A stretch of DNA of 14,530 bases from Candidatus Hermodarchaeota archaeon (GTDB taxonomy: Archaea > Asgardarchaeota > Hermodarchaeia > Hermodarchaeales > Hermodarchaeaceae), in NCBI GenBank assembly GCA_016839995.1, contig JAEOTD010000067.1:1-14530 (forward strand), in the 5' to 3' direction. Of this stretch, positions 2,758-14,530 are shown one piece after another (position 1 is the stretch's first letter; every line of letters begins with the position of its first letter). The notes beneath the pieces are model-generated. The model did no database searches, was not told the origin of the DNA, and worked only from the letters and a program-made list of their open reading frames with translations. A program made the position numbers and the translations under genes.

Positions 2758-3267
2758 ATGGGTGTCAAAGGTTGGATTGGCTGGCACTTTAAGATGCAAA
2801 AAACCTCACTGAATGCATTCCAGGCTTTGGTTGCAGCAGTAATTGACGATGTTCTAGAAGACAGTAAAGGTGATGTCAACCTAGCAAATCAGAAGCTATT
2901 GCGCTTAGGAAATGCCATGGCTGAGACCTTGTTATTTGAATACAGCGACACAATTGGACAGCACGCAACCACCTTTGATGGTTTTCTCGACACTTTCACG
3001 TTAGCTACCAGGGTAATGTTAGGCAAAGGCTTTGACAATGCCTATTACGATAAAGCCGAAAGAAAAATCGTTTATGTATTTGAAGACTGCCCCATTTGCC
3101 AAAACATTCGAATGTCTGACGAGTTTCATGGTCTGAAGTACTGTAACATCCTCAGTGGAGTATTTCAACACGTTCTAACTCTCCGGGGTTTCAATAGTAT
3201 ATGCGAAGAAGTCCAATGCAGAACGTGGGGTTCTGACTCTTGCATTTGGGAGCTAAGAGAACAATAG
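2758..3267 (+). CDS. V4R (4-vinyl-reductase) domain protein, the fold family related to eukaryotic Bet3/TRAPP subunits
   Basis: GGTGA at 2747-2751 lies 6 nt upstream of the ATG. The C-terminal 'CPICQNIRMSDEFHGLKYCNILSGVFQHVLTLRGFNSICEEVQCRTWGSDSCIWEL' fits the V4R pattern C..(G)..G......v.E..C...G...C.f.l. Confidence 0.65.
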   Translation: MGVKGWIGWHFKMQKTSLNAFQALVAAVIDDVLEDSKGDVNLANQKLLRLGNAMAETLLFEYSDTIGQHATTFDGFLDTFTLATRVMLGKGFDNAYYDKAERKIVYVFEDCPICQNIRMSDEFHGLKYCNILSGVFQHVLTLRGFNSICEEVQCRTWGSDSCIWELREQ

Positions 3268-3371: not shown

Positions 3372-4652
3372 GTGTCCAAAAAAACTTCAGCTATTAGTGG
3401 ATTTTATCGTTTATCCATTCCAGAGCGCTTAGATAAGCTGCGTGAGTTTGCAAATCTTACCGATGAAGATATCGCCACATTAGAGACCTTTGGAGCTCTT
3501 GATGCTGCTACAGCGGATCGAATGATTGAGAACGTGGTTGGCTCGTATGCTTTTCCTCTTGGAATGGCTACAAATTTCCAGATAAACGGTCAAGACTACC
3601 TCATTCCCATGGCATTAGAGGAACCTTCTGTTGTAGCAGCCGCCTCAAATGCCGCAGGGATGACACGAGAACAGGGCGGTTTTACTGCAAGTACAACAGA
3701 CCCCGTAATGATAGGGCAAATTCAAGTAGCTGATATTCCTGACTTAAAAGTAGCACAAAAGTCGATTTTAGAACAAAAAGAGAATTTGTTGAGAGTGGCT
3801 AATGCACAAGATCCTGTCTTAGTCAAATTTGGAGGAGGTGCGCGCGATTTGCAGGTCCGTCGATTGGACACCATGATGGGACCCATGCTAATTGTCCACT
3901 TACTTGTTGATGCCCGTGATGCCATGGGCGCAAATGCTGTTAATACGATGTGCGAAATGCTTGCCCCTCTTCTTGAAGATTTAACCAAGGGAAAGGTGTA
4001 CTTACGGATTCTATCCAACTTAGCAGTGAATCGTCTTGCTCGAGCAGAGGCAACATTTCCAGTTAAAGCCTTAGGCGGAGCAAAGGCAGTTGAAGGGATT
4101 TTGAAAGCTTATGCTTTCGCCCAAGCGGATCCCTACCGCTGTGCCACCCATAATAAGGGAATAATGAATGGTATCGATGCCGTGCTCCTTGCTACTGGAC
4201 AGGATTTCCGAGCTGTTGAAGCAGGCGCACATACGTATGCAGCAACACGAGAGGGAGGTTATCAATCCCTGACACACTATGAAAAAACCGCTGAAGGTGA
4301 TTTACATGGTTCTATTGAATTACCCATGGCTGTCGGACTAGTAGGCGGAGCGACCCGAACTCACCCAGTTGCACGCTTATGTGTGAAAATCTTAGGAGTA
4401 AAAACAGCCAATGAGCTTGCACAAATTATTGCTAGTGTGGGATTAGCCCAAAACCTCGCCGCATTGCGTGCTTTAAGCCAAGAAGGTATTCAGAAAGGAC
4501 ACATGAAGCTACACGCTCGAAATGTCGCTGTCGCTGCAGGAGCTTTTGACGATGAGGTCGACCAAGTCGCTCAGAAAATGATTACTGAAAAACGCGTTCG
4601 CTTTGATAGGGCACAAGAAATCCTCGCTGAGCTTCGAAAGAAAACTACATGA
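3372..4652 (+). CDS. mvaA: hydroxymethylglutaryl-CoA reductase, class II (soluble, Pseudomonas mevalonii MvaA type)
   Basis: GTG start, with GAGGT at 3360-3364 about 7 nt upstream. 426 aa with no N-terminal membrane domain. Class II motifs are present: 'MIENVVGSYAFPLGMATNFQINGQDYLIPMALEEPSVVAAASNAA', 'HNKGIMNGIDAV', 'GQDFRAVEAGAH', 'GHMKLHARN'. Confidence 0.9.
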   Translation: MSKKTSAISGFYRLSIPERLDKLREFANLTDEDIATLETFGALDAATADRMIENVVGSYAFPLGMATNFQINGQDYLIPMALEEPSVVAAASNAAGMTREQGGFTASTTDPVMIGQIQVADIPDLKVAQKSILEQKENLLRVANAQDPVLVKFGGGARDLQVRRLDTMMGPMLIVHLLVDARDAMGANAVNTMCEMLAPLLEDLTKGKVYLRILSNLAVNRLARAEATFPVKALGGAKAVEGILKAYAFAQADPYRCATHNKGIMNGIDAVLLATGQDFRAVEAGAHTYAATREGGYQSLTHYEKTAEGDLHGSIELPMAVGLVGGATRTHPVARLCVKILGVKTANELAQIIASVGLAQNLAALRALSQEGIQKGHMKLHARNVAVAAGAFDDEVDQVAQKMITEKRVRFDRAQEILAELRKKTT

Positions 4653-4747: not shown

Positions 4748-5683
4748 ATGAAACAGTACATCGGGATGATTGAAATCCTGGGTGAAGGGGGCGAAATGCT
4801 TCCACTTCACTGGAATCCTAAACATCTAGTAAATGGTCGGTCGATACTAATTGTTGATGAGACCGAGGGGATTATCTGGGTGTGGTTGGGTAAAGGGACA
4901 TCGATGTTACAACGTACAACAGCTCTTCGTCAGGCCCGGTTTATAATGAAAAACGGTACCCGTGTTGAAGAGACCCATTTTGGCACTAAATGCACAAATT
5001 TCATTGAAGTACCTGGTGATCTGGCGAATCCAAAAGCGGCACTCCTCAGAAACCTCCTTGAAACGCATCCCAAAACTTCTGACTATCTTGTAGTTACCCA
5101 AGAGGAAGAAACGGTTTCAACGTTTGAAGAGTCCTTCCAAGACAAAGTTGAGGTTATTGAGCAAACAGTTGTCCCTGAACCTATTCGCAAGGTTACACCG
5201 GTGCGTCGACGAATTCTAACGTATGAAGAACAGCTAGCAACAAAAGTGCTTTTTGCTGTATCCGATTGCTATGGACAGGCTTCTATGAATCCAATTGGCC
5301 CCAATGAGTTCTTGGTTTCGGTGCTTCGATTACAAATGCGCTTTTTCTGTCAAGGAGAGGCAATTTTATTCTCTGAGATTCGAGCGGCTGCACAAGAGGA
5401 TCTTGACGCCTTTACTCGGTGTTTTGGTCAACAACCCGAACTAACTGCAGAGGGACAAATATTTGTTTCATCCACCCTTCTAACATCTGAACCACCAACC
5501 CCATCAAGTGATAAACCAGCATCTGTTGTTGAATCCATGCGTGAACAACTGTCTCAGATAAGTCACAATGCTTCGGATCAAGATGACGAGGAACCAGACG
5601 ACACAGCAGAGGAAGAAAGTGAAGACGAAGAAGAAGAGGAAGACAAGAAGAGCGGCTCTTCTGATTTTGAACTATTTGAGTAA
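4748..5683 (+). CDS. gelsolin-like domain protein, paralogue 1 (Gel domain, linker, uncharacterised C-terminal module, acidic tail)
   Basis: GGTGA at 4735-4739 lies 8 nt upstream of the ATG. Residues 1 to about 117 carry 'SILIVDETEGIIWVWLGKGTSMLQRTTALRQARFI...NFIEVPGDLANPKAALLRNLL', which parallels the gelsolin repeat pattern (hydrophobic-D strand, xWxG, basic/acidic long helix). The C-terminal tail is 'DQDDEEPDDTAEEESEDEEEEEDKKSGSSDFELFE'. A T5 run follows the stop. Confidence 0.6.
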   Translation: MKQYIGMIEILGEGGEMLPLHWNPKHLVNGRSILIVDETEGIIWVWLGKGTSMLQRTTALRQARFIMKNGTRVEETHFGTKCTNFIEVPGDLANPKAALLRNLLETHPKTSDYLVVTQEEETVSTFEESFQDKVEVIEQTVVPEPIRKVTPVRRRILTYEEQLATKVLFAVSDCYGQASMNPIGPNEFLVSVLRLQMRFFCQGEAILFSEIRAAAQEDLDAFTRCFGQQPELTAEGQIFVSSTLLTSEPPTPSSDKPASVVESMREQLSQISHNASDQDDEEPDDTAEEESEDEEEEEDKKSGSSDFELFE

Positions 5684-5688
5684 TTTTT
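5684..5688 (+). terminator. oligo-T run directly after the paralogue-1 stop (archaeal-type terminator candidate)
   Basis: The sequence reads TAA-TTTTT-cttgtattt. The next gene is convergent. Confidence 0.45.
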
Positions 5689-5772
5689 CTTGTATTTGGT
5701 GTTGCGTTACCCTGCAATAACAAGTCGTATTGGACGTCGCTTCATTCTCATTTGTGAAAAGAGGGATTAGTG

Positions 5773-6015
5773 TCATGCATGAGTTGAAACTTTTTCAACA
5801 CGCAGCCATGGATTTTGTCGGGTAAACTCAAAAAGAGATTGGGTGAATCGTTCTAAGTCATCGAGCTCAATGACGAAGTTGAAACGTCCTTCCCCTAGGG
5901 GTAATTTGCTGATAATACGTCCATGTTGGTTGAGGAGAAGATTGATCCAACCCGTTTTTGTTGCGTTTTCTTCACGGGTTGTACCTCGGTAGGAAAGCGA
6001 AATATTAGCTTTCAT
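5773..6015 (-). CDS. small hypothetical protein (80 aa, predicted beta-alpha-beta-beta-alpha-beta pattern)
   Basis: A strong SD, GGTGAGG at 6020-6026 on the minus strand, lies 4 nt upstream of the ATG at 6015. No family was recognised. The alternating strand/helix propensity suggests a ferredoxin-like fold. Confidence 0.55.
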   Translation of the reverse strand: MKANISLSYRGTTREENATKTGWINLLLNQHGRIISKLPLGEGRFNFVIELDDLERFTQSLFEFTRQNPWLRVEKVSTHA

Positions 6016-6099
6016 ATAGCCTCACCTTACGTTAGTTCTTTGGCAACTGAGCCGACTTAAACCTTTCCGAAGACGTGTTGAATTACAGCCTTTGACGGA

Positions 6100-6687
6100 T
6101 TAAGCAGTGGATTCAGAGCGGGTTGAAGAAGAATTGGCGCGGAAACGATATGAGATGAGATCGTAGGCAATATCGAACCCCCAGAATGCAACTGTATGAA
6201 CTAAGGTCAATAAGCCAAGGAAGGGAAGGATAAGAACTATGATTTTCAATAATGGCCGGTGAACGATAGCCCAGCGTAAAGTAGAATGTGCAATTTGAGA
6301 AGCTTTGGAATGGAGCAACTCGTCCATTATCGAAGCAACTAAGATGATAATAAGTGTGGGAAAACCCATTAGAAATCCAGACATAACCAGAAGTCGAAAG
6401 AAACTCAGGGGTAGTGTGGTGATTGTCAGAAGCAAAAAGAAGCTGCTGTCAACTTTACGTGTTACGATTAGACCTAATATGATTCCAATAACCAGAATCG
6501 CTGTGTAGAGATCAAAAAATACCCAGATATTGACGAGAATTACTAGCCCACATGTCACCACCCATAGAGAGGTATGACGTGATTGAAACTGAACAGGAAA
6601 ATCGGTTGCCAAATCAAGGAGTTTGATACCTGCACCGAGGAGCACATAGGATACGATTAGAGCTAGTGCAAAAAGAACGAGACTCAT
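6100..6687 (-). CDS. polytopic integral membrane protein (about 6 TM segments), family unknown
   Basis: 195 aa and dominated by hydrophobic stretches, for example 'SLVLFALALIVSYVLLGAGIKLL', 'LWVVTCGLVILVNIWVFF', 'LYTAILVIGIILGLIVT', 'PLLKIIVLILPFLGLLTLVHTVAFWGF'. It starts 27 nt downstream of the paralogue-2 stop on the same strand. Confidence 0.7.
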   Translation of the reverse strand: MSLVLFALALIVSYVLLGAGIKLLDLATDFPVQFQSRHTSLWVVTCGLVILVNIWVFFDLYTAILVIGIILGLIVTRKVDSSFFLLLTITTLPLSFFRLLVMSGFLMGFPTLIIILVASIMDELLHSKASQIAHSTLRWAIVHRPLLKIIVLILPFLGLLTLVHTVAFWGFDIAYDLISYRFRANSSSTRSESTA

Positions 6688-6714
6688 TATTCCATGCCTT
6701 TAATCTATAATGGT

Positions 6715-7425
6715 TTAACCGGCAATGCTTTTGAGTTCGTGGGCCACCAACTCTTTGAGTTCCTTAGGAGTTTTTGAATCCCATTTGAATGTTAATTTGC
6801 CTTTACTGCGTTTCATCTCGTGGGTAAGCCCATCAATTCCCTCTATTATCACTTCTTCAGTTTCACCCTTACTTCGATATTCAATGTGAACTTGTTGATG
6901 GACGCGGATAATCGCCAGTAGTGCCGCTTCCAAATCAAGTTTGGATGCCTTTTTCGCAGGTGCTCTTGTTTCTGTTGGTGTTACTGTTTCATCGGGTGAA
7001 ATACTTGCTGATACAGGAGCTGAAGAAGCACCCCCTTGAAGTGTTCCCACAATAAGTGTTCCCTTGGGACTTGCTATCGTAGAAATTTCCATTGGAGATT
7101 CTAACAAGGCGATGAGGTTTGAATAATTGTTTGATGTGGTGGGATCTTCCAAGTTATCTGCATCAATGAGGACAAGGGAATACCCTCGTCCCAAGACTTC
7201 GTCACCAATTCGCTGGCCTTCCGTGGTGATTTGTTCAGCTTTTGCTTTTGCTGTACGACGTTTGTCATATTGAACACCAGTACCCATCCAGAACCAGAGA
7301 GTTTTGTTTTGTTCATCAACAACACCGACACATACATCACCTCGGAGTTTTCGGGCTCCAGGACGAATCGATCTAACAAAGCCTAGGCCACCGATTTCCA
7401 ACATTACGACTCGTGACATGTGCAT
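6715..7425 (-). CDS. gelsolin-like domain protein, paralogue 2 (Gel domain, Ser/Thr/Pro linker, uncharacterised C-terminal module)
   Basis: 'VCVGVVDEQNKTLWFWMGTGVQYDKRRTAKAKAEQI...SLVLIDADNLEDPTTSNNYSNLIALL' aligns position for position with paralogues 1 and 3. The start is ambiguous. The ATG at 7425 is only 2 nt from the GGGGTG box, whereas the in-frame ATG at 7419 ('MSRVV...') has 8-nt spacing and may be the true start. Confidence 0.6.
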   Translation of the reverse strand: MHMSRVVMLEIGGLGFVRSIRPGARKLRGDVCVGVVDEQNKTLWFWMGTGVQYDKRRTAKAKAEQITTEGQRIGDEVLGRGYSLVLIDADNLEDPTTSNNYSNLIALLESPMEISTIASPKGTLIVGTLQGGASSAPVSASISPDETVTPTETRAPAKKASKLDLEAALLAIIRVHQQVHIEYRSKGETEEVIIEGIDGLTHEMKRSKGKLTFKWDSKTPKELKELVAHELKSIAG

Positions 7426-7448
7426 AGCACCCCATTTGACACCATTCG

Positions 7449-7469
7449 AATAGAAATGTAATTTCTATT
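7449..7469. repeat. perfect 9-bp inverted repeat with a 3-nt spacer (AATAGAAAT-gta-ATTTCTATT), 24-44 nt upstream of the paralogue-2 start
   Basis: Read directly from the sequence. It is AT-rich and overlaps the position where a TATA/BRE for a short-leader transcript would sit. Confidence 0.6.
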
Positions 7470-7491
7470 GAAGCAATTTTTACCACGATTT

Positions 7492-7515
7492 CACCTATCT
7501 AGTGATGGATAGGTG
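7492..7515. repeat. perfect 8-bp inverted repeat with an 8-nt loop (CACCTATC-tagtgatg-GATAGGTG)
   Basis: Read directly from the sequence. It lies in the 198-nt spacer between paralogues 3 and 2, and TTTT follows it on the plus strand. Confidence 0.6.
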
Positions 7516-7607
7516 TTTTCGGGCTAGGTCCGGTTTAGAATTTGTTACCGTATTTATTAAGTTGACCCTGCGCATACTTTGGCTGTAATATCTAATACAG
7601 TTCCTGC

Positions 7608-7613
7608 AAAAAA
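7608..7613 (-). terminator. T6 run 10 nt after the paralogue-3 stop (archaeal-type terminator candidate)
   Basis: The minus strand reads TAA-cccacggaaa-TTTTTT-gcagg. Confidence 0.45.
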
Positions 7614-7623
7614 TTTCCGTGGG

Positions 7624-8391
7624 TTAGAGGTCAGCGGCGGCTAATCGATCTCGGAGAAGACCTAGTATATCATTACGTCTTCCACGAAAATCGTATCGTT
7701 GCAGAAAATGAACTGAGTTTTGACTTACTTCCACTTGGCAGATGATACCTTCAGGATCTTCTACTGAATAGCGAGTTCCTTCGTCCGTTTTTGTAACACT
7801 TACATAGCACATTGGAAAAAAGTCAAGGATTGATGAGATGAGAATTCCTACACGGATGATGCCGAGACCTTGAAGCTCTCGGGAAGGTTTCGGTGCAACT
7901 GTTTCAGTAGTAGGCTTGGCGGGAGCAGCTTCAGTTACAGCAGGGGTTGGTGTTGTGACTTTTTCAACGGGGGCTGGTTGAGGAGCGGGTTTTGTTGGTG
8001 GAGGAGCTGGTGAGGGCGTTCCTCCAAAGCGCCCCAGGACTCCTTCTGTGATGTTGAACTTCTGGCTCAGGGTATGAATTAGTTGGTCATAGTATCCTTT
8101 GATTTCAGGGTCGTCGAGGATTTCACCATCAATAATTTCGATGTTTGTAACATCACGACCAATGCGGTATGGACCTAGTTGATAGCCTGCGCTTACAAGA
8201 GAGCGGGCTTTTCGTTGGGCGGCCCGTCGTTCAACAAGTGTGGTTGAGGAGCCTTGCCAGAGCCAGACCCGCTCCTTGAGTTCGTCGATAGCTATGACGA
8301 TTCGATCGTCGGTTAGAGCCTCGGTTGATAAGGGGAGGGGTTCGATTATCCCTGAGGAAAAATCGAGTAGTAACACAAATTTATCTGCCAT
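7624..8391 (-). CDS. gelsolin-like domain protein, paralogue 3 (Gel domain, Pro-rich linker, uncharacterised C-terminal module)
   Basis: 'DRIVIAIDELKERVWLWQGSSTTLVERRAAQRKARSLV...IEIIDGEILDDPEIKGYYDQLIHTL' is the closest of the three to the gelsolin repeat consensus (xWxG...s..ER.aA...A). The linker is 'GGTPSPAPPPTKPAPQPAPVEKVTTPTPAVTEAAPAKPTTETVAPKPS'. A T6 run on the minus strand follows the stop. Confidence 0.65.
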   Translation of the reverse strand: MADKFVLLLDFSSGIIEPLPLSTEALTDDRIVIAIDELKERVWLWQGSSTTLVERRAAQRKARSLVSAGYQLGPYRIGRDVTNIEIIDGEILDDPEIKGYYDQLIHTLSQKFNITEGVLGRFGGTPSPAPPPTKPAPQPAPVEKVTTPTPAVTEAAPAKPTTETVAPKPSRELQGLGIIRVGILISSILDFFPMCYVSVTKTDEGTRYSVEDPEGIICQVEVSQNSVHFLQRYDFRGRRNDILGLLRDRLAAADL

Positions 8392-9707: not shown

Positions 9708-10616
9708 ATGGCAAGGAATTCAGCGACTGAGAAAGATAAGTTTGGAGCTATTCTGGACCAGTTACGGAAAGTACAAGCAGCAAACCGAGTATTAATACGG
9801 GGAATTCAGGAAGCAAAGAATCGAGCATGGGAATGGCGTGACAGACGAGATGAGTTACGTTCAGAAGCTCCTGTTGTTCATGAGGAAATGTCTGATCAGC
9901 GAACTAGACGGGATGAATTGAACGCAGAAGTTCAGCACCAGAAAAAGTTACGAGATGAGGCAAATGAGCATGTTCGATTGTTACAAGAACAGCTCCACGA
10001 ATTACGAGCGCAGCGAGATAATCAACGGAACTATATACCATTAGAGGAGTTACAACGACAATTTCGTGAACTCGAATGGAAACAGCAGACTACTACGCTT
10101 ACAGTAGAGGAAGAGCGAATCCTCTTAGATGAGATGGAAAGATTATCAAAAGCGATGGAAACTGCACCAACTCACACTTCTCAGTCGGCAAACCAATCAG
10201 AAGAAATGGATGAATTGTGGCAAGAGATTCAAGAAGCTCGAGATAAAGCACAAGAACATCATGAGAAAATGATAGCACTTGTTGAAGAGGCACAACAAAC
10301 ACATCGAAGTATACTCGGTTTATCTCAAGGACTTGGTCCTGCTCGATCAGAGGGTGATGAAGCTCATCAAGAGTATGTTAAATGCCTTCAAGAAGCAGAT
10401 GAGATGCGGGAACGAGTAGATGTATTACGAGAACAGGAAAGAGAGCTGAAATCTCAACTAGATAGTATTCGAAAAGATCAGAAGGCTTCTCGTCAAGCAC
10501 AAGAGCAGGCGGCTATGGAGAAATTAGCAGAGCAGGCTAAGGCTAAACAACAAGCTGGGCAAAAACTGAGCATGGAAGAGCTGCGAGCCTTGATGGAATC
10601 GGATGGAATAGGGTGA
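9708..10616 (+). CDS. charged coiled-coil protein (resembles the archaeal COG1340-type uncharacterised coiled-coil family)
   Basis: 302 aa, rich in E/R/Q/K with heptad-like periodicity. It contains 'LEWKQQTTTLTVEEERILLDEMERLSKAME' between two long helical halves. There is no SD, and ATTTAA at 9682-9687 lies about 23 nt upstream of the ATG, which may indicate a leaderless mRNA. The family assignment is from memory of the pattern only. Confidence 0.55.
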   Translation: MARNSATEKDKFGAILDQLRKVQAANRVLIRGIQEAKNRAWEWRDRRDELRSEAPVVHEEMSDQRTRRDELNAEVQHQKKLRDEANEHVRLLQEQLHELRAQRDNQRNYIPLEELQRQFRELEWKQQTTTLTVEEERILLDEMERLSKAMETAPTHTSQSANQSEEMDELWQEIQEARDKAQEHHEKMIALVEEAQQTHRSILGLSQGLGPARSEGDEAHQEYVKCLQEADEMRERVDVLREQERELKSQLDSIRKDQKASRQAQEQAAMEKLAEQAKAKQQAGQKLSMEELRALMESDGIG

Positions 10617-10634: not shown

Positions 10635-11648
10635 CTAGAACGACCGTTGATAAATGAAGTCAACCAAGGTTTCGAGTAATTGGGTTGCCTCTTTGTTGGG
10701 GAAGGAATCAAGGGCACTTTTGGCATCATTAACGAGCTGCTTGGCTTTCTTTTGGACAAAATCGCTAGCCGTTGTTTGTTTAAGGAGTGCAATGACTTTC
10801 TTGACATCATTTTCCGTGGGTTTATCGGAACGAAGAACTTGGAGAACATAGTCTCTGTCAGCTTGAGATAGAAGTGGCAGCGCCTGTAAAAGGACTACAT
10901 TACCGAGTTTATGTTCATAGATATCCTTGCCTAGTTTCTTACCAAGCTTTGCTTCTTCAGCAAAGAGGTCGAGGACATCATCAGCCAATTGAAAAGCAAT
11001 TCCAGCTTTCCAACCAAATTCTCGGGCAGCCTTTTGCATCTCCTTTGATCCAGCTGCACAGATTACTCCAATTTCACATGAAGCCCGTATTAGGGCTGCT
11101 GTCTTATACCCAATCATGGTTTCATAGTCTTCTAAGCTGACATCGCGATAACGGTGTTTTTCGGTGTATTCTTCATTACTGGGAAGTTGCTCAAATAATA
11201 CGTCCAGCCGTTCCCCTTCAACCAATTCCCGAATGGTATCAGCGATAATTCGGGATATAGCGGCATGATTGGGTGTTCTTATGGACCCCTCTTCAATTGC
11301 TTCACGATAATGTATTGCGGCTAAAATTCCAAAGTTCAAACCGAACTTCTTCCATGTCGTCGGGAGGTTTCGTCGAACATCAGCGTCGTCAATTACATCA
11401 TCGAGTATGAGAGAATAGTTGTGGACTAATTCAATTGCTGCTGCGGCTGAGAGGGCATCTTCTGTGTTTCCTCCTACTGCTTGGCAGAATAAAATTGTCA
11501 ATGCTGGTCGGACGCGTTTTCCTCCCGCTTGGACCTGATGGAACACCACTTCTTGGAAATCCTTTGAAGCACCTACGGTAAGGAGTTCCAGCATTTTGTC
11601 ATCTACTTGGGAACCAAGCTTCCCGAGAACTTGTAAAATATCAGACAT
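10635..11648 (-). CDS. idsA: (all-E) polyprenyl diphosphate synthase, probably geranylgeranyl diphosphate synthase
   Basis: First Asp-rich motif 'LILDDVIDDADVRRN', second 'FQLADDVLD'. An aromatic Tyr sits 5 residues before the first motif ('HNYSLILDD'), as in short-chain (C20) archaeal enzymes. GGTGA lies 6 nt upstream of the ATG at 11648. Confidence 0.85.
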   Translation of the reverse strand: MSDILQVLGKLGSQVDDKMLELLTVGASKDFQEVVFHQVQAGGKRVRPALTILFCQAVGGNTEDALSAAAAIELVHNYSLILDDVIDDADVRRNLPTTWKKFGLNFGILAAIHYREAIEEGSIRTPNHAAISRIIADTIRELVEGERLDVLFEQLPSNEEYTEKHRYRDVSLEDYETMIGYKTAALIRASCEIGVICAAGSKEMQKAAREFGWKAGIAFQLADDVLDLFAEEAKLGKKLGKDIYEHKLGNVVLLQALPLLSQADRDYVLQVLRSDKPTENDVKKVIALLKQTTASDFVQKKAKQLVNDAKSALDSFPNKEATQLLETLVDFIYQRSF

Positions 11649-13942: not shown

Positions 13943-14530
13943 TTACACCTCAGGAAAGAGTTTCTCCATCAGTTGTGTAGCCAAATCTGTGAAGGCTTCA
14001 GTGACGTTGCGCCCATCTAAGGCACTGGTTTCATAGTATTTTCCTTGAATACGATCAGTTGCTTGTGTTGCGGCGTATTCAGATACGGCTCGTTCTGATT
14101 CTAAATCGGTTTTATTTGCCAAGACTACTCGGATAAAATCGTTGCCTAGGGTTGATGTGACCTCGTCTAACCATTTGGATTCGACTGCTGATGCAGATGA
14201 GGCGCGAGTAATATCAAAGACGAAAATAACTGCATTGGCACCAGTATAATATCTCTGACGAAGTGGTTGAAATCGTTCTTGACCCCCAGTATCAAATAAT
14301 TGTAGTTTCAGTTTTTGTCCTTTCACATCTATGATTTTGGTGACAATATTGACTCCAATACTTGGTTTATAGTCATGCTCAAATTTATTTTCAGCAAACC
14401 GCCGGATTACACTGGTTTTTCCTACGCCCCAATCACCAACAATAACGACTTTGACAACGTATCCGGCTTTCCCAGGTGTTTCAGCTTCAGAGGTATTTGA
14501 AGGATGAGATTGTGCGCAGATTGTCCTCAC
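13943..14530 (-). CDS. Ras-superfamily small GTPase, Rab/Arf-like (Asgard-type); the N-terminus is at or beyond the window edge
   Basis: G1 is 'GDWGVGKTS'. Switch I is 'YKPSIGVN' (compare Rab 'STIGVDF'). G3 is 'DTGGQERF', G4 is 'NKTD' and G5 is 'ETSAL'. The protein ends '...MEKLFPEV' with no C-terminal Cys. The ORF is open to base 14530, where a GTG happens to sit, so the true start is uncertain. Confidence 0.85.
   Translation of the reverse strand: MRTICAQSHPSNTSEAETPGKAGYVVKVVIVGDWGVGKTSVIRRFAENKFEHDYKPSIGVNIVTKIIDVKGQKLKLQLFDTGGQERFQPLRQRYYTGANAVIFVFDITRASSASAVESKWLDEVTSTLGNDFIRVVLANKTDLESERAVSEYAATQATDRIQGKYYETSALDGRNVTEAFTDLATQLMEKLFPEV
13946..13951 (-). promoter_or_regulatory. Shine-Dalgarno GAGGTG embedded in the last codons of the GTPase gene, serving the TTG start of the downstream DUF885-like gene (translational coupling)
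   Basis: The minus strand reads cct-GAG-GTG-TAA-tcct-TTG. The motif is complementary to the archaeal 16S 3' end consensus and has 7-nt spacing to the TTG. Confidence 0.6.

Follow-up and report, generated by a model that had tools for sequence, protein, structure and literature searches.

Asgard archaea are, to our knowledge, the only prokaryotes with a regulated, eukaryote-like actin cytoskeleton, and the tally of their actin regulators (profilins, ProGel, 1DGelX and 2DGel) feeds models of how the eukaryotic cytoskeleton originated. A 14,530 nt stretch of DNA from Candidatus Hermodarchaeota archaeon (GenBank assembly GCA_016839995.1, contig JAEOTD010000067.1, forward strand; hereafter the window, whose positions are used throughout) raises the question of whether three of its genes, named here A, B and C, add to this tally. 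Inspection of the bare sequence had led a first-pass annotation to describe them as old paralogues sharing a gelsolin-like N-terminal domain. The N-domains of A, B and C are homologous to the gelsolin repeat, and keep its D...W-x-G signature and the long helix that follows it. They belong to an Asgard-wide gelsolin-homology (GH) family that probably regulates the archaeal actin cytoskeleton, to judge by sequence, predicted structure and analogy with known gelsolins. Since standard annotation misses this Asgard-wide GH clade, the set of actin regulators is likely to be larger and more diversified than the three published classes. This is not a categorically new system, as Asgard gelsolin-homology proteins are well known; the novelty lies in a divergent subfamily that spans the Asgard archaea and has escaped annotation, in its new C-terminal domain, and in a cluster of three paralogues specific to Hermodarchaeia.

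Gene and domain architecture of A, B and C

The three open reading frames (ORFs) were found at the coordinates and on the strands first proposed, and encode proteins of 311, 236 and 255 amino acids (aa). The genes and their domains are listed below; the predicted local distance difference test values (pLDDT) are those of AlphaFold2 (AF2) models.

4748..5683, + strand: gene A, 311 aa; GH N-domain, short helix and linker, alpha-beta C-domain, acidic tail
4748..5104, + strand: A GH domain, aa 1-119 (D37, W44-V-W46-L-G48, helix 53-69); pLDDT ~92
5222..5467, + strand: A C-terminal domain, aa 159-240 (alpha, four beta strands, alpha, beta); pLDDT ~95
5468..5680, + strand: A disordered acidic tail, ending in SGSSDFELFE; pLDDT <50
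6715..7425, - strand: gene B, 236 aa; GH domain, P/T/S-rich linker, C-type domain
7051..7425, - strand: B GH domain, aa 1-125 (D37-E38, W44-F-W46-M-G48, helix ~54-68); assigned by hhalign to the C family and part of the combined profile
6718..6945, - strand: B C-terminal domain, aa 161-236, a diverged C-type copy; assigned by hhalign with the broad C-type profile
7624..8391, - strand: gene C, 255 aa; GH domain, P/T-rich disordered linker, C-type domain
8017..8391, - strand: C GH domain, aa 1-125 (D36-E37, W43-L-W45-Q-G47, helix 52-68, short helix 95-108); pLDDT ~90
7876..8016, - strand: C disordered P/T/A-rich linker, aa 126-172; pLDDT <50 at residues 134-172
7627..7875, - strand: C 'C-type' domain, aa 173-255 (helix 176-189, four strands, helix 239-252); pLDDT ~91

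Alignments of the orthologues of each gene revealed a common layout, in which an N-domain of ~110-125 aa is followed by a variable low-complexity linker and a C-terminal domain of ~75-85 aa. The linker is P/T-rich in the B and C families (that of C varies in both length and sequence among orthologues), and a long acidic tail is present in the A family only. The sequence elements from which the gelsolin-like reading had been drawn, namely an (I/V)x(V/I)DE element, a basic helix and a later L..(D/N)P...L..LL segment, are all present in A, B and C. The W-x-W-x-G motif begins at the residues first assigned to it; its ends had been set one residue short, the true spans being 44-48 in A, 44-48 in B and 43-47 in C. 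Because the orthologues of B begin at the equivalent of its Met3 (MTR..MLEIGG), the true start of B may be at 7419 rather than 7425.

Gelsolin homology of the N-terminal domains

When searched alone, A matched the Pfam Gelsolin family (PF00626) with an E-value of 0.014 and 15.7 bits, under the 21-bit gathering cutoff, while no Pfam Gelsolin match was obtained for the single B or C sequences. The public annotation of these proteins as 'hypothetical' follows from this, since individually they fall below the gathering score. Pfam Gelsolin was touched by 16 of 49 family members at E<=1 (best E 0.0031). A phmmer search of the PDB with A reached villin at 0.015, and the sub-significant matches obtained with phmmer were repeatedly villin, gelsolin, CapG and the Loki, Heimdall and Thor gelsolins; Thor ProGel was matched by C alone with an E of ~1, and by neither A nor B. 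Profiles of the separate families gave marginal matches in the PDB, the top three for the C family being the Heimdall, Loki and Thor gelsolins.

A combined N-domain profile merging the A, B and C families, named A4, was searched against PDB sequences. It matched 32 chains, all 32 of them of the gelsolin superfamily. The E-values were 2.8e-11 for villin, 4.3e-7 for the Loki 2DGel, 3e-5 for gelsolin and 3.6e-4 for adseverin, with weaker matches to the Heimdall 2DGel (4.5e-4), Thor ProGel (0.011) and CapG (0.017). Only the merged three-family profile was decisive, the single-sequence and per-family searches being sub-threshold or marginal. The profile searches of the PDB thus yielded significant matches to gelsolins, and no confident match to an unrelated family.

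The A4 alignments cover strand C, the D...W-x-G turn and the long helix. In these HMMER alignments, the D and W-x-G of villin V3 and gelsolin G3 are matched by D37, W46 and G48 in A, by the equally numbered residues in B, and by D36, W45 and G47 in C. The W and the G do not vary in any of the three families; the D is likewise fixed, or almost so, outside the most divergent B members. A DWG motif separates gelsolin from cofilin folds (Akil et al. 2020, preprint 10.1101/768580), and the alignments indicate that A, B and C carry the motif of the gelsolin type. As for calcium, the acidic residues that approximate the type II site of eukaryotic repeats appear, by alignment reading, to be kept only in C, as an invariant D29 and E54; at these positions A has G30 and Q55, and B has no such pair, with a register that is uncertain by 1-2 residues. 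Calcium control seems unlikely for A and B, and is conceivable for C.

Predicted structure of the N-domains

AF2 models of C (m20ca2eb2adb6) and A (mde83c8626d46) were compared with the PDB by means of Foldseek. In both models the two folded domains have pLDDT values of ~90-95, and the linkers are disordered. The predicted N-domain consists, in A and in C, of four beta strands, a long helix, three short beta strands, a short helix and one or two terminal beta strands. The best single-domain match for A was Thor ProGel (7c2f_B), with a target-normalised template modelling (TM) score of 0.87 and a root-mean-square deviation (rmsd) of 1.8 A. The same chain was the top match for C (E 5.8e-4, target-normalised TM 0.73). 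The next matches, at probability 1.00, were dozens of domains of gelsolin, adseverin, villin, severin, fragmin, CapG and Asgard 2DGel. In the BFVD library of viral structures, the best match was a gelsolin-repeat protein of Klosneuvirus.

The models thus contain the sheet and the long helix of the gelsolin core, and the crystal structure of Thorarchaeota ProGel is their best match, so that a gelsolin fold, nearest to that of ProGel, is predicted for the N-domains with high confidence. The gelsolin-like reading of the first-pass annotation was therefore borne out twice, by a profile that matches only the gelsolin superfamily in the PDB and by AF2 folds that match Thor ProGel best; neither of the outcomes that the annotation had named as refuting it, a lack of gelsolin homology and fold or a confident match to an unrelated family, arose.

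An Asgard-wide family

An exhaustive hidden Markov model (HMM) search with A4 was run against 1.84 billion representative proteins, and returned 170 matches at E<=1e-3, 92 of them at E<=1e-10. Beyond the Hermodarchaeial families, the strong matches comprised ~90 cluster representatives, mostly of 200-340 aa, in which the whole N-domain was matched. All named members are from Asgard archaea (Odinarchaeia, Helarchaeota, Freyarchaeota, 'Asgardarchaeia', Hodarchaeota, Ranarchaeia and Promethearchaeota) and all are annotated as 'hypothetical'. Multi-repeat proteins of ~500-1700 aa, with three to five matched stretches and a gelsolin/villin-looking organization, appeared only from an E of ~6e-9 downward, and 2DGel-like proteins at ~1e-5 to 1e-4. 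In the layout of the family, one divergent GH domain is joined by a disordered linker of low complexity to a small alpha-4beta-alpha domain at the C-terminus.

Most of the pan-Asgard representatives scored best against the N-domain of C. The HMM of the C-terminal domain of C, moreover, matched 42 further pan-Asgard representatives, which identifies C as the Hermodarchaeial orthologue of a pan-Asgard protein composed of a GH domain, a linker and a C-type domain.

Larger architectures were also observed. P0184 (525 aa, from a metagenome-assembled genome (MAG) labelled Hodarchaeota) has two tandem divergent GH domains, a helical region and what looks by eye like a C-type domain; P0249 (374 aa) has two GH domains, one ProGel-like and one divergent, and an end that resembles a zinc ribbon; and P0261 (427 aa) is likewise larger. 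These members suggest domain shuffling within the clade.

Paralogy of A, B and C

In pairwise BLASTP comparisons, A and B matched with an E of 7e-6, A and C with 3e-10, and B and C with 3e-12, at 24-27% identity over the N-terminal 80-110 residues. When the orthologue families were compared using hhalign, the alignments extended over the N-terminal 90-120 residues, with probabilities of 99.1% for C and B (E 1.4e-18), 97.9% for C and A (E 3.7e-13) and 96.7% for B and A (E 4e-10). By these comparisons, A, B and C are anciently diverged paralogues with homologous N-domains. The first-pass annotation had seen no nucleotide similarity between the copies and had considered the duplications old, and both views held: the best blastn E was 0.066, codon-aligned identity was 42-45% and amino-acid identity 23-28%, and a B-like subfamily is also present in a MAG labelled Helarchaeota.

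Database searches recovered 64 orthologue clusters for C, 65 for A and 52 for B, down to ~40% identity (40-89% for the A family). All are labelled 'hypothetical protein', and none carries a precomputed Pfam domain. Family C occurs in 17 species-representative genomes; among those with informative names nearly all are Hermodarchaeota, one of them Ca. Hermodarchaeum yapensis, which places the window in a Hermodarchaeial Asgard archaeon. Outside Hermodarchaeia, B-like N-domains are found as well, as in P0258, the Helarchaeota-labelled protein, which carries a C-type C-domain. The duplication that gave rise to B and C therefore appears older than Hermodarchaeia, provided the label of this MAG is reliable.

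The C-terminal domains and the tail of A

At the level of the separate families, hhalign found no homology among the three C-domains, and a broader profile linked that of B, not that of A. The broad C-type profile aligned end-to-end with the C-domain of B (72 columns, probability 90.3%, E 1.5e-6), so that B and C are full-length paralogues. With the C-domain of A, the alignment was in register and not significant (E=0.11). The AF2 model gives this domain an alpha-4beta-alpha(-beta) topology, the same as that of the C-type domain, and its HMM recovers the A family only; its predicted relationship to the C-type domain is thus by topology only. No relatives of the C-type domain were found in PDB sequences or in Pfam by phmmer and profile searches, and Foldseek searches with the whole models, inspected for the identity of the C-domain, returned N-domain matches only.

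The alpha-4beta-alpha domain could also be a degenerated second gelsolin repeat, in which case A, B and C would be cryptic two-domain gelsolins, extreme variants of 2DGel. After its leading helix, the order of elements (beta-beta-beta-beta-alpha, with or without a further beta) is indeed that of the first two-thirds of the gelsolin core, and several of the top Foldseek matches are multi-domain gelsolins aligned over 250-340 columns, beyond the N-domain (8viz_G, 3ffn_A, 9jus_V). These long alignments, however, have an rmsd of 20-30 A and a lower probability, and may be spurious extensions. Further, no sequence signal connects the C-domain with GH domains (E 0.3-0.41 with family profiles and 0.27 with broad ones), the W-x-G motif is absent from it, and the WH2-like LKKV/LKDV motif is absent between the two domains. 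A hidden second repeat is thus very unlikely.

The A family closes with a conserved G-[ST]-x-[DE]-[FY]-x-[LFM]-F motif, which in the window reads SGSSDFELFE and looks like a docking peptide. The tail resembles that of ribosomal P-stalk proteins, which is acidic with a hydrophobic tip, or else the acidic motifs found in nucleation-promoting factors of actin; no Pfam family of either kind was reported for it.

Comparison with published Asgard gelsolins

Three classes of Asgard gelsolins have been defined: ProGel, a bare domain, 1DGelX and 2DGel (Akil et al. 2020, PMC7444086). In vitro, the Thor representatives of all three regulate actin (PMC7444086). For Thor 1DGelX, nucleation and severing of actin do not depend on calcium; its GH domain is 35% identical to ProGel, its domain X is predicted to be a coiled coil, and at ~40 kDa it runs near actin on gels (PMC7444086).

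A, B and C share with ProGel (PDB 7C2F) the fold, a single gelsolin/cofilin-type domain, the W-x-G and an Asgard origin. ProGel, however, is a bare domain of ~90 aa, whereas A, B, C and their orthologues add a linker and a conserved C-terminal domain; they also have a W-x-W-x-G motif and a strongly basic helix, both of which ProGel lacks. The 1DGelX or GelX proteins (Thor KXH72031.1 and L. ossiferum B35_GelX) resemble them in having one GH domain, then a long linker and a non-gelsolin C-terminal region. Set apart on the basis of the published description of 1DGelX, A, B and C have 14-18% identity to ProGel, compact predicted alpha-beta C-domains (pLDDT 91-95) and lengths of 236-311 aa. Neither KXH72031.1 nor L. 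ossiferum B35 accessions were present among 30 family cluster representatives (0/30). The search also revealed a separate ProGel-like group of 'GH + X' proteins (P0283, P0285, P0290, P0310 and others) with a different C-domain. Searched by itself, P0290 matches ProGel end-to-end (E 9.7e-8), and with A4 its group scores many orders of magnitude below the A/B/C clade; it is the likelier home of the published 1DGelX.

The 2DGels (PDB 7C2G/7C2H from Thor, 7WHG from Loki and 7WHF from Heimdall) have a homologous GH domain and are among the best A4 matches, but consist of two recognisable repeats that carry calcium sites and are separated by a WH2-like motif, while the second domain of A, B and C lacks sequence similarity to the gelsolin repeat. 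The eukaryotic gelsolin, villin, adseverin and CapG proteins (PF00626) share the fold and the signature of strand, D...W-x-G and long helix; unlike A, B and C, they have three to six repeats. Finally, five gelsolin-homology proteins of L. ossiferum co-immunoprecipitate with Lokiactin (10.1101/2025.11.30.690169), and two of those enriched in this way, B35_Gel1 and B35_Gel2 (UYP47899.1 and UYP48324.1), are single-GH proteins of 29.2 and 26.6 kDa (10.1101/2025.11.30.690169). Compared by description and size only, they resemble A, B and C in having a single GH domain plus an extra region and in falling within the size range of the family; their non-GH part is called disordered in that preprint, whereas the C-type domain is predicted to be folded.

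Sequence and models together indicate that the A/B/C family is distinct from the published ProGel, 1DGelX and 2DGel classes, 1DGelX having been compared by description. The kinship with primitive Asgard gelsolins that the first-pass annotation had invoked therefore stands as regards gelsolin homology; membership of the named classes does not, since A, B and C fall in a separate, far more divergent clade. It can tentatively be proposed, with somewhat less than an even chance of being right in all its parts, that this clade is a fourth, undescribed class of Asgard GH proteins. It would be defined by a W-x-W-x-G motif and a basic RR.A.R.A helix, a linker and an Asgard-specific alpha-4beta-alpha domain; be present in most Asgard lineages and invisible to Pfam; and have expanded to three paralogues in Hermodarchaeia, with B coupled to the membrane through a co-transcribed membrane protein and A bearing a distinct C-domain and a docking tail.

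Proposed function

In the alignments, conservation across the family is highest in the segment made up of the W-x-G strand and the long helix. It is with this element that gelsolin G1 and ProGel contact actin. From homology, we infer that A, B and C bind actin. Archaeal actin (Lokiactin) would be bound by the GH domain in the manner of gelsolin G1 and ProGel: the basic long helix (RR.A.R.A), strongly conserved in the family, would occupy the cleft that separates actin subdomains 1 and 3. Tethered by the flexible linker, the C-type domain would provide a second contact, be it for self-association, binding to the side of the filament or another partner, so that a protein otherwise able only to bind monomers or filament ends would become one that caps, severs or bundles. 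Sub-functionalisation of the three paralogues is further proposed, C being the ancestral general form. B, probably co-transcribed with the gene for a multi-pass membrane protein, may act at the membrane, and A would use its different C-domain and its acidic tail with the terminal peptide motif for another partner. Thor 1DGelX can serve as a working model for their activity. Beyond sequence and fold, the proposal is supported by the action of the Thor gelsolins on actin in vitro, by the co-immunoprecipitation of single-GH proteins of similar size with Lokiactin, by a profilin-like gene just upstream of an Odinarchaeial family member, and by the conserved gene order in Hermodarchaeia with its pairing of B and a membrane protein.

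Several observations weigh against this proposal. The single A, B and C sequences all miss the Pfam Gelsolin gathering score (21 bits), and identity to ProGel in the structural alignments is only 14-18%. The gelsolin-like domains of Sec23/24 are among the weaker Foldseek matches of C (E ~1e-2); these COPII subunits have the gelsolin fold yet do not bind actin. B35_Gel1 and B35_Gel2 are at most candidate members of the A/B/C family, which they fit in size only. The family members of Helarchaeota, Odinarchaeia, Freyarchaeota and three further lineages are solitary, in unrelated surroundings and without a membrane-protein neighbour. A recurrent actin or profilin neighbour was sought in these six distant loci and found in only one, that of Odinarchaeia (MAG GCA_054383415.1), where a 122-aa profilin-like gene (L024 6587-6955; Pfam Profilin E 3.3e-4, 21.2 bits, cutoff 25) lies 46 bp upstream of P0188 on the same strand. 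Within Hermodarchaeia, the conserved neighbourhood is weak evidence of joint function, since the entire ~15 kb block, from a GTPase gene to a LarA-like gene, is syntenic in the loci examined.

The GH folds might be genuine but recruited to a non-actin role in protein-protein interaction, such as trafficking or another Asgard process, in the manner of Sec23/Sec24. The presence of those proteins among the fold matches would fit this, as would the high divergence of A, B and C from actin-binding gelsolins, the pairing of B with a membrane protein, the Ras/Arf-like GTPase and V4R/TRAPP-like genes in the window, and the neighbourhood in most lineages, which is unrelated to actin. However, the 32 PDB matches of A4 are all actin-binding proteins of the gelsolin family, with none from Sec23/24 (0/32), and the nearest structural match is ProGel in complex with actin. 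Moreover, the best-conserved segment is the very one through which gelsolin G1 and ProGel contact actin, and the named members are confined to the one prokaryotic group with a regulated actin cytoskeleton. Recruitment away from actin is therefore rather improbable, and regulation of the archaeal actin cytoskeleton is the preferred reading. A, B and C are short and soluble-looking, and hence tractable for actin assays, and the pairing of B with a membrane protein offers a possible archaeal link between actin and membrane. Should they not bind actin, they would show that the gelsolin fold was diverted early to other tasks, as it was in Sec23/24.

Genomic context of the cluster

Two further conserved ORFs lie between B and A:

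6100..6687, - strand: multi-pass membrane protein, ~195 aa; conserved ORF 27 bp downstream of B
5773..6015, - strand: conserved 80-aa ORF, downstream of the membrane protein on the same strand

In Hermodarchaeia, the order M24 peptidase, C, B, membrane protein, 80-aa ORF, A (on the opposite strand) and HMG-CoA reductase is kept down to 41% identity. A membrane-protein orthologue occupies the same position in all four Hermodarchaeial loci examined (L001, L002, L003 and L005); the protein of the window shares G.IK.LD...D and DEL.H motifs with that of L005. Since the membrane-protein gene starts 27 bp after B in all four, B is probably co-transcribed with it. The 80-aa ORF has orthologues in L001, L002 and L005. 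No Pfam family was found for either product. No membrane-protein gene was present beside the B-like gene of the Helarchaeota MAG. As the distant family members are lone genes, the three-gene cluster is specific to Hermodarchaeia.

The cluster is not uniform across relatives. In two of them, a gene for an all-helical protein of 150-160 aa lies between C and B (L003 8941-9423; L005 8914-9369), and in two a beta-CASP RNase gene lies between the 80-aa ORF and A (L001 10691-12088; L005 11103-12506). The window has neither, and its C-B gap is 198 bp (7426-7623). The helical gene was ruled out as a fourth paralogue, its product being all-helical and unrelated, and similarly placed small genes in distant lineages were not convincing as its homologues.

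The first-pass annotation had taken the three co-localised genes to form a functionally differentiated actin-regulatory module. This is plausible, with the arguments for and against roughly in balance. A view only just short of evenly matched with it is that the genes are leftovers of old tandem duplications without a joint function, kept together by slow rearrangement in Hermodarchaeia. Synteny of the whole 15-kb block points that way, as do the insertion or loss of unrelated genes (the beta-CASP RNase and the helical protein) within the cluster across genomes, and the solitary family members of other Asgard lineages. The order C-B-membrane protein, on the other hand, is retained even at 41% identity. 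This alternative concerns only the claim of a module, and is compatible with each of the proteins regulating actin.

Outside Hermodarchaeia, a DNA ligase gene adjoins or lies near the family member in L024, L027 and L028, with a beta-CASP RNase gene nearby in two of these, just as one occurs in Hermodarchaeia. Such neighbours may be a trace of ancient synteny supporting C-type orthology.

Among the other genes of the window are three of eukaryotic-signature type, encoding a Ras/Arf-like small GTPase (13943-14530, - strand; Pfam Ras 4e-48), a V4R/TRAPP-like protein (2758-3267, + strand) and a DUF7121 coiled-coil protein (9708-10616, + strand); all three are syntenic with the gelsolin-like cluster across Hermodarchaeia. 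The cluster is flanked by isoprenoid-lipid genes, for HMG-CoA reductase (3372-4652, + strand) and a polyprenyl (GGPP-type) synthase (10635-11648, - strand). The rest of the window encodes an agmatinase, the M24 peptidase, the LarA-like protein and a fragment of an FGGY kinase.

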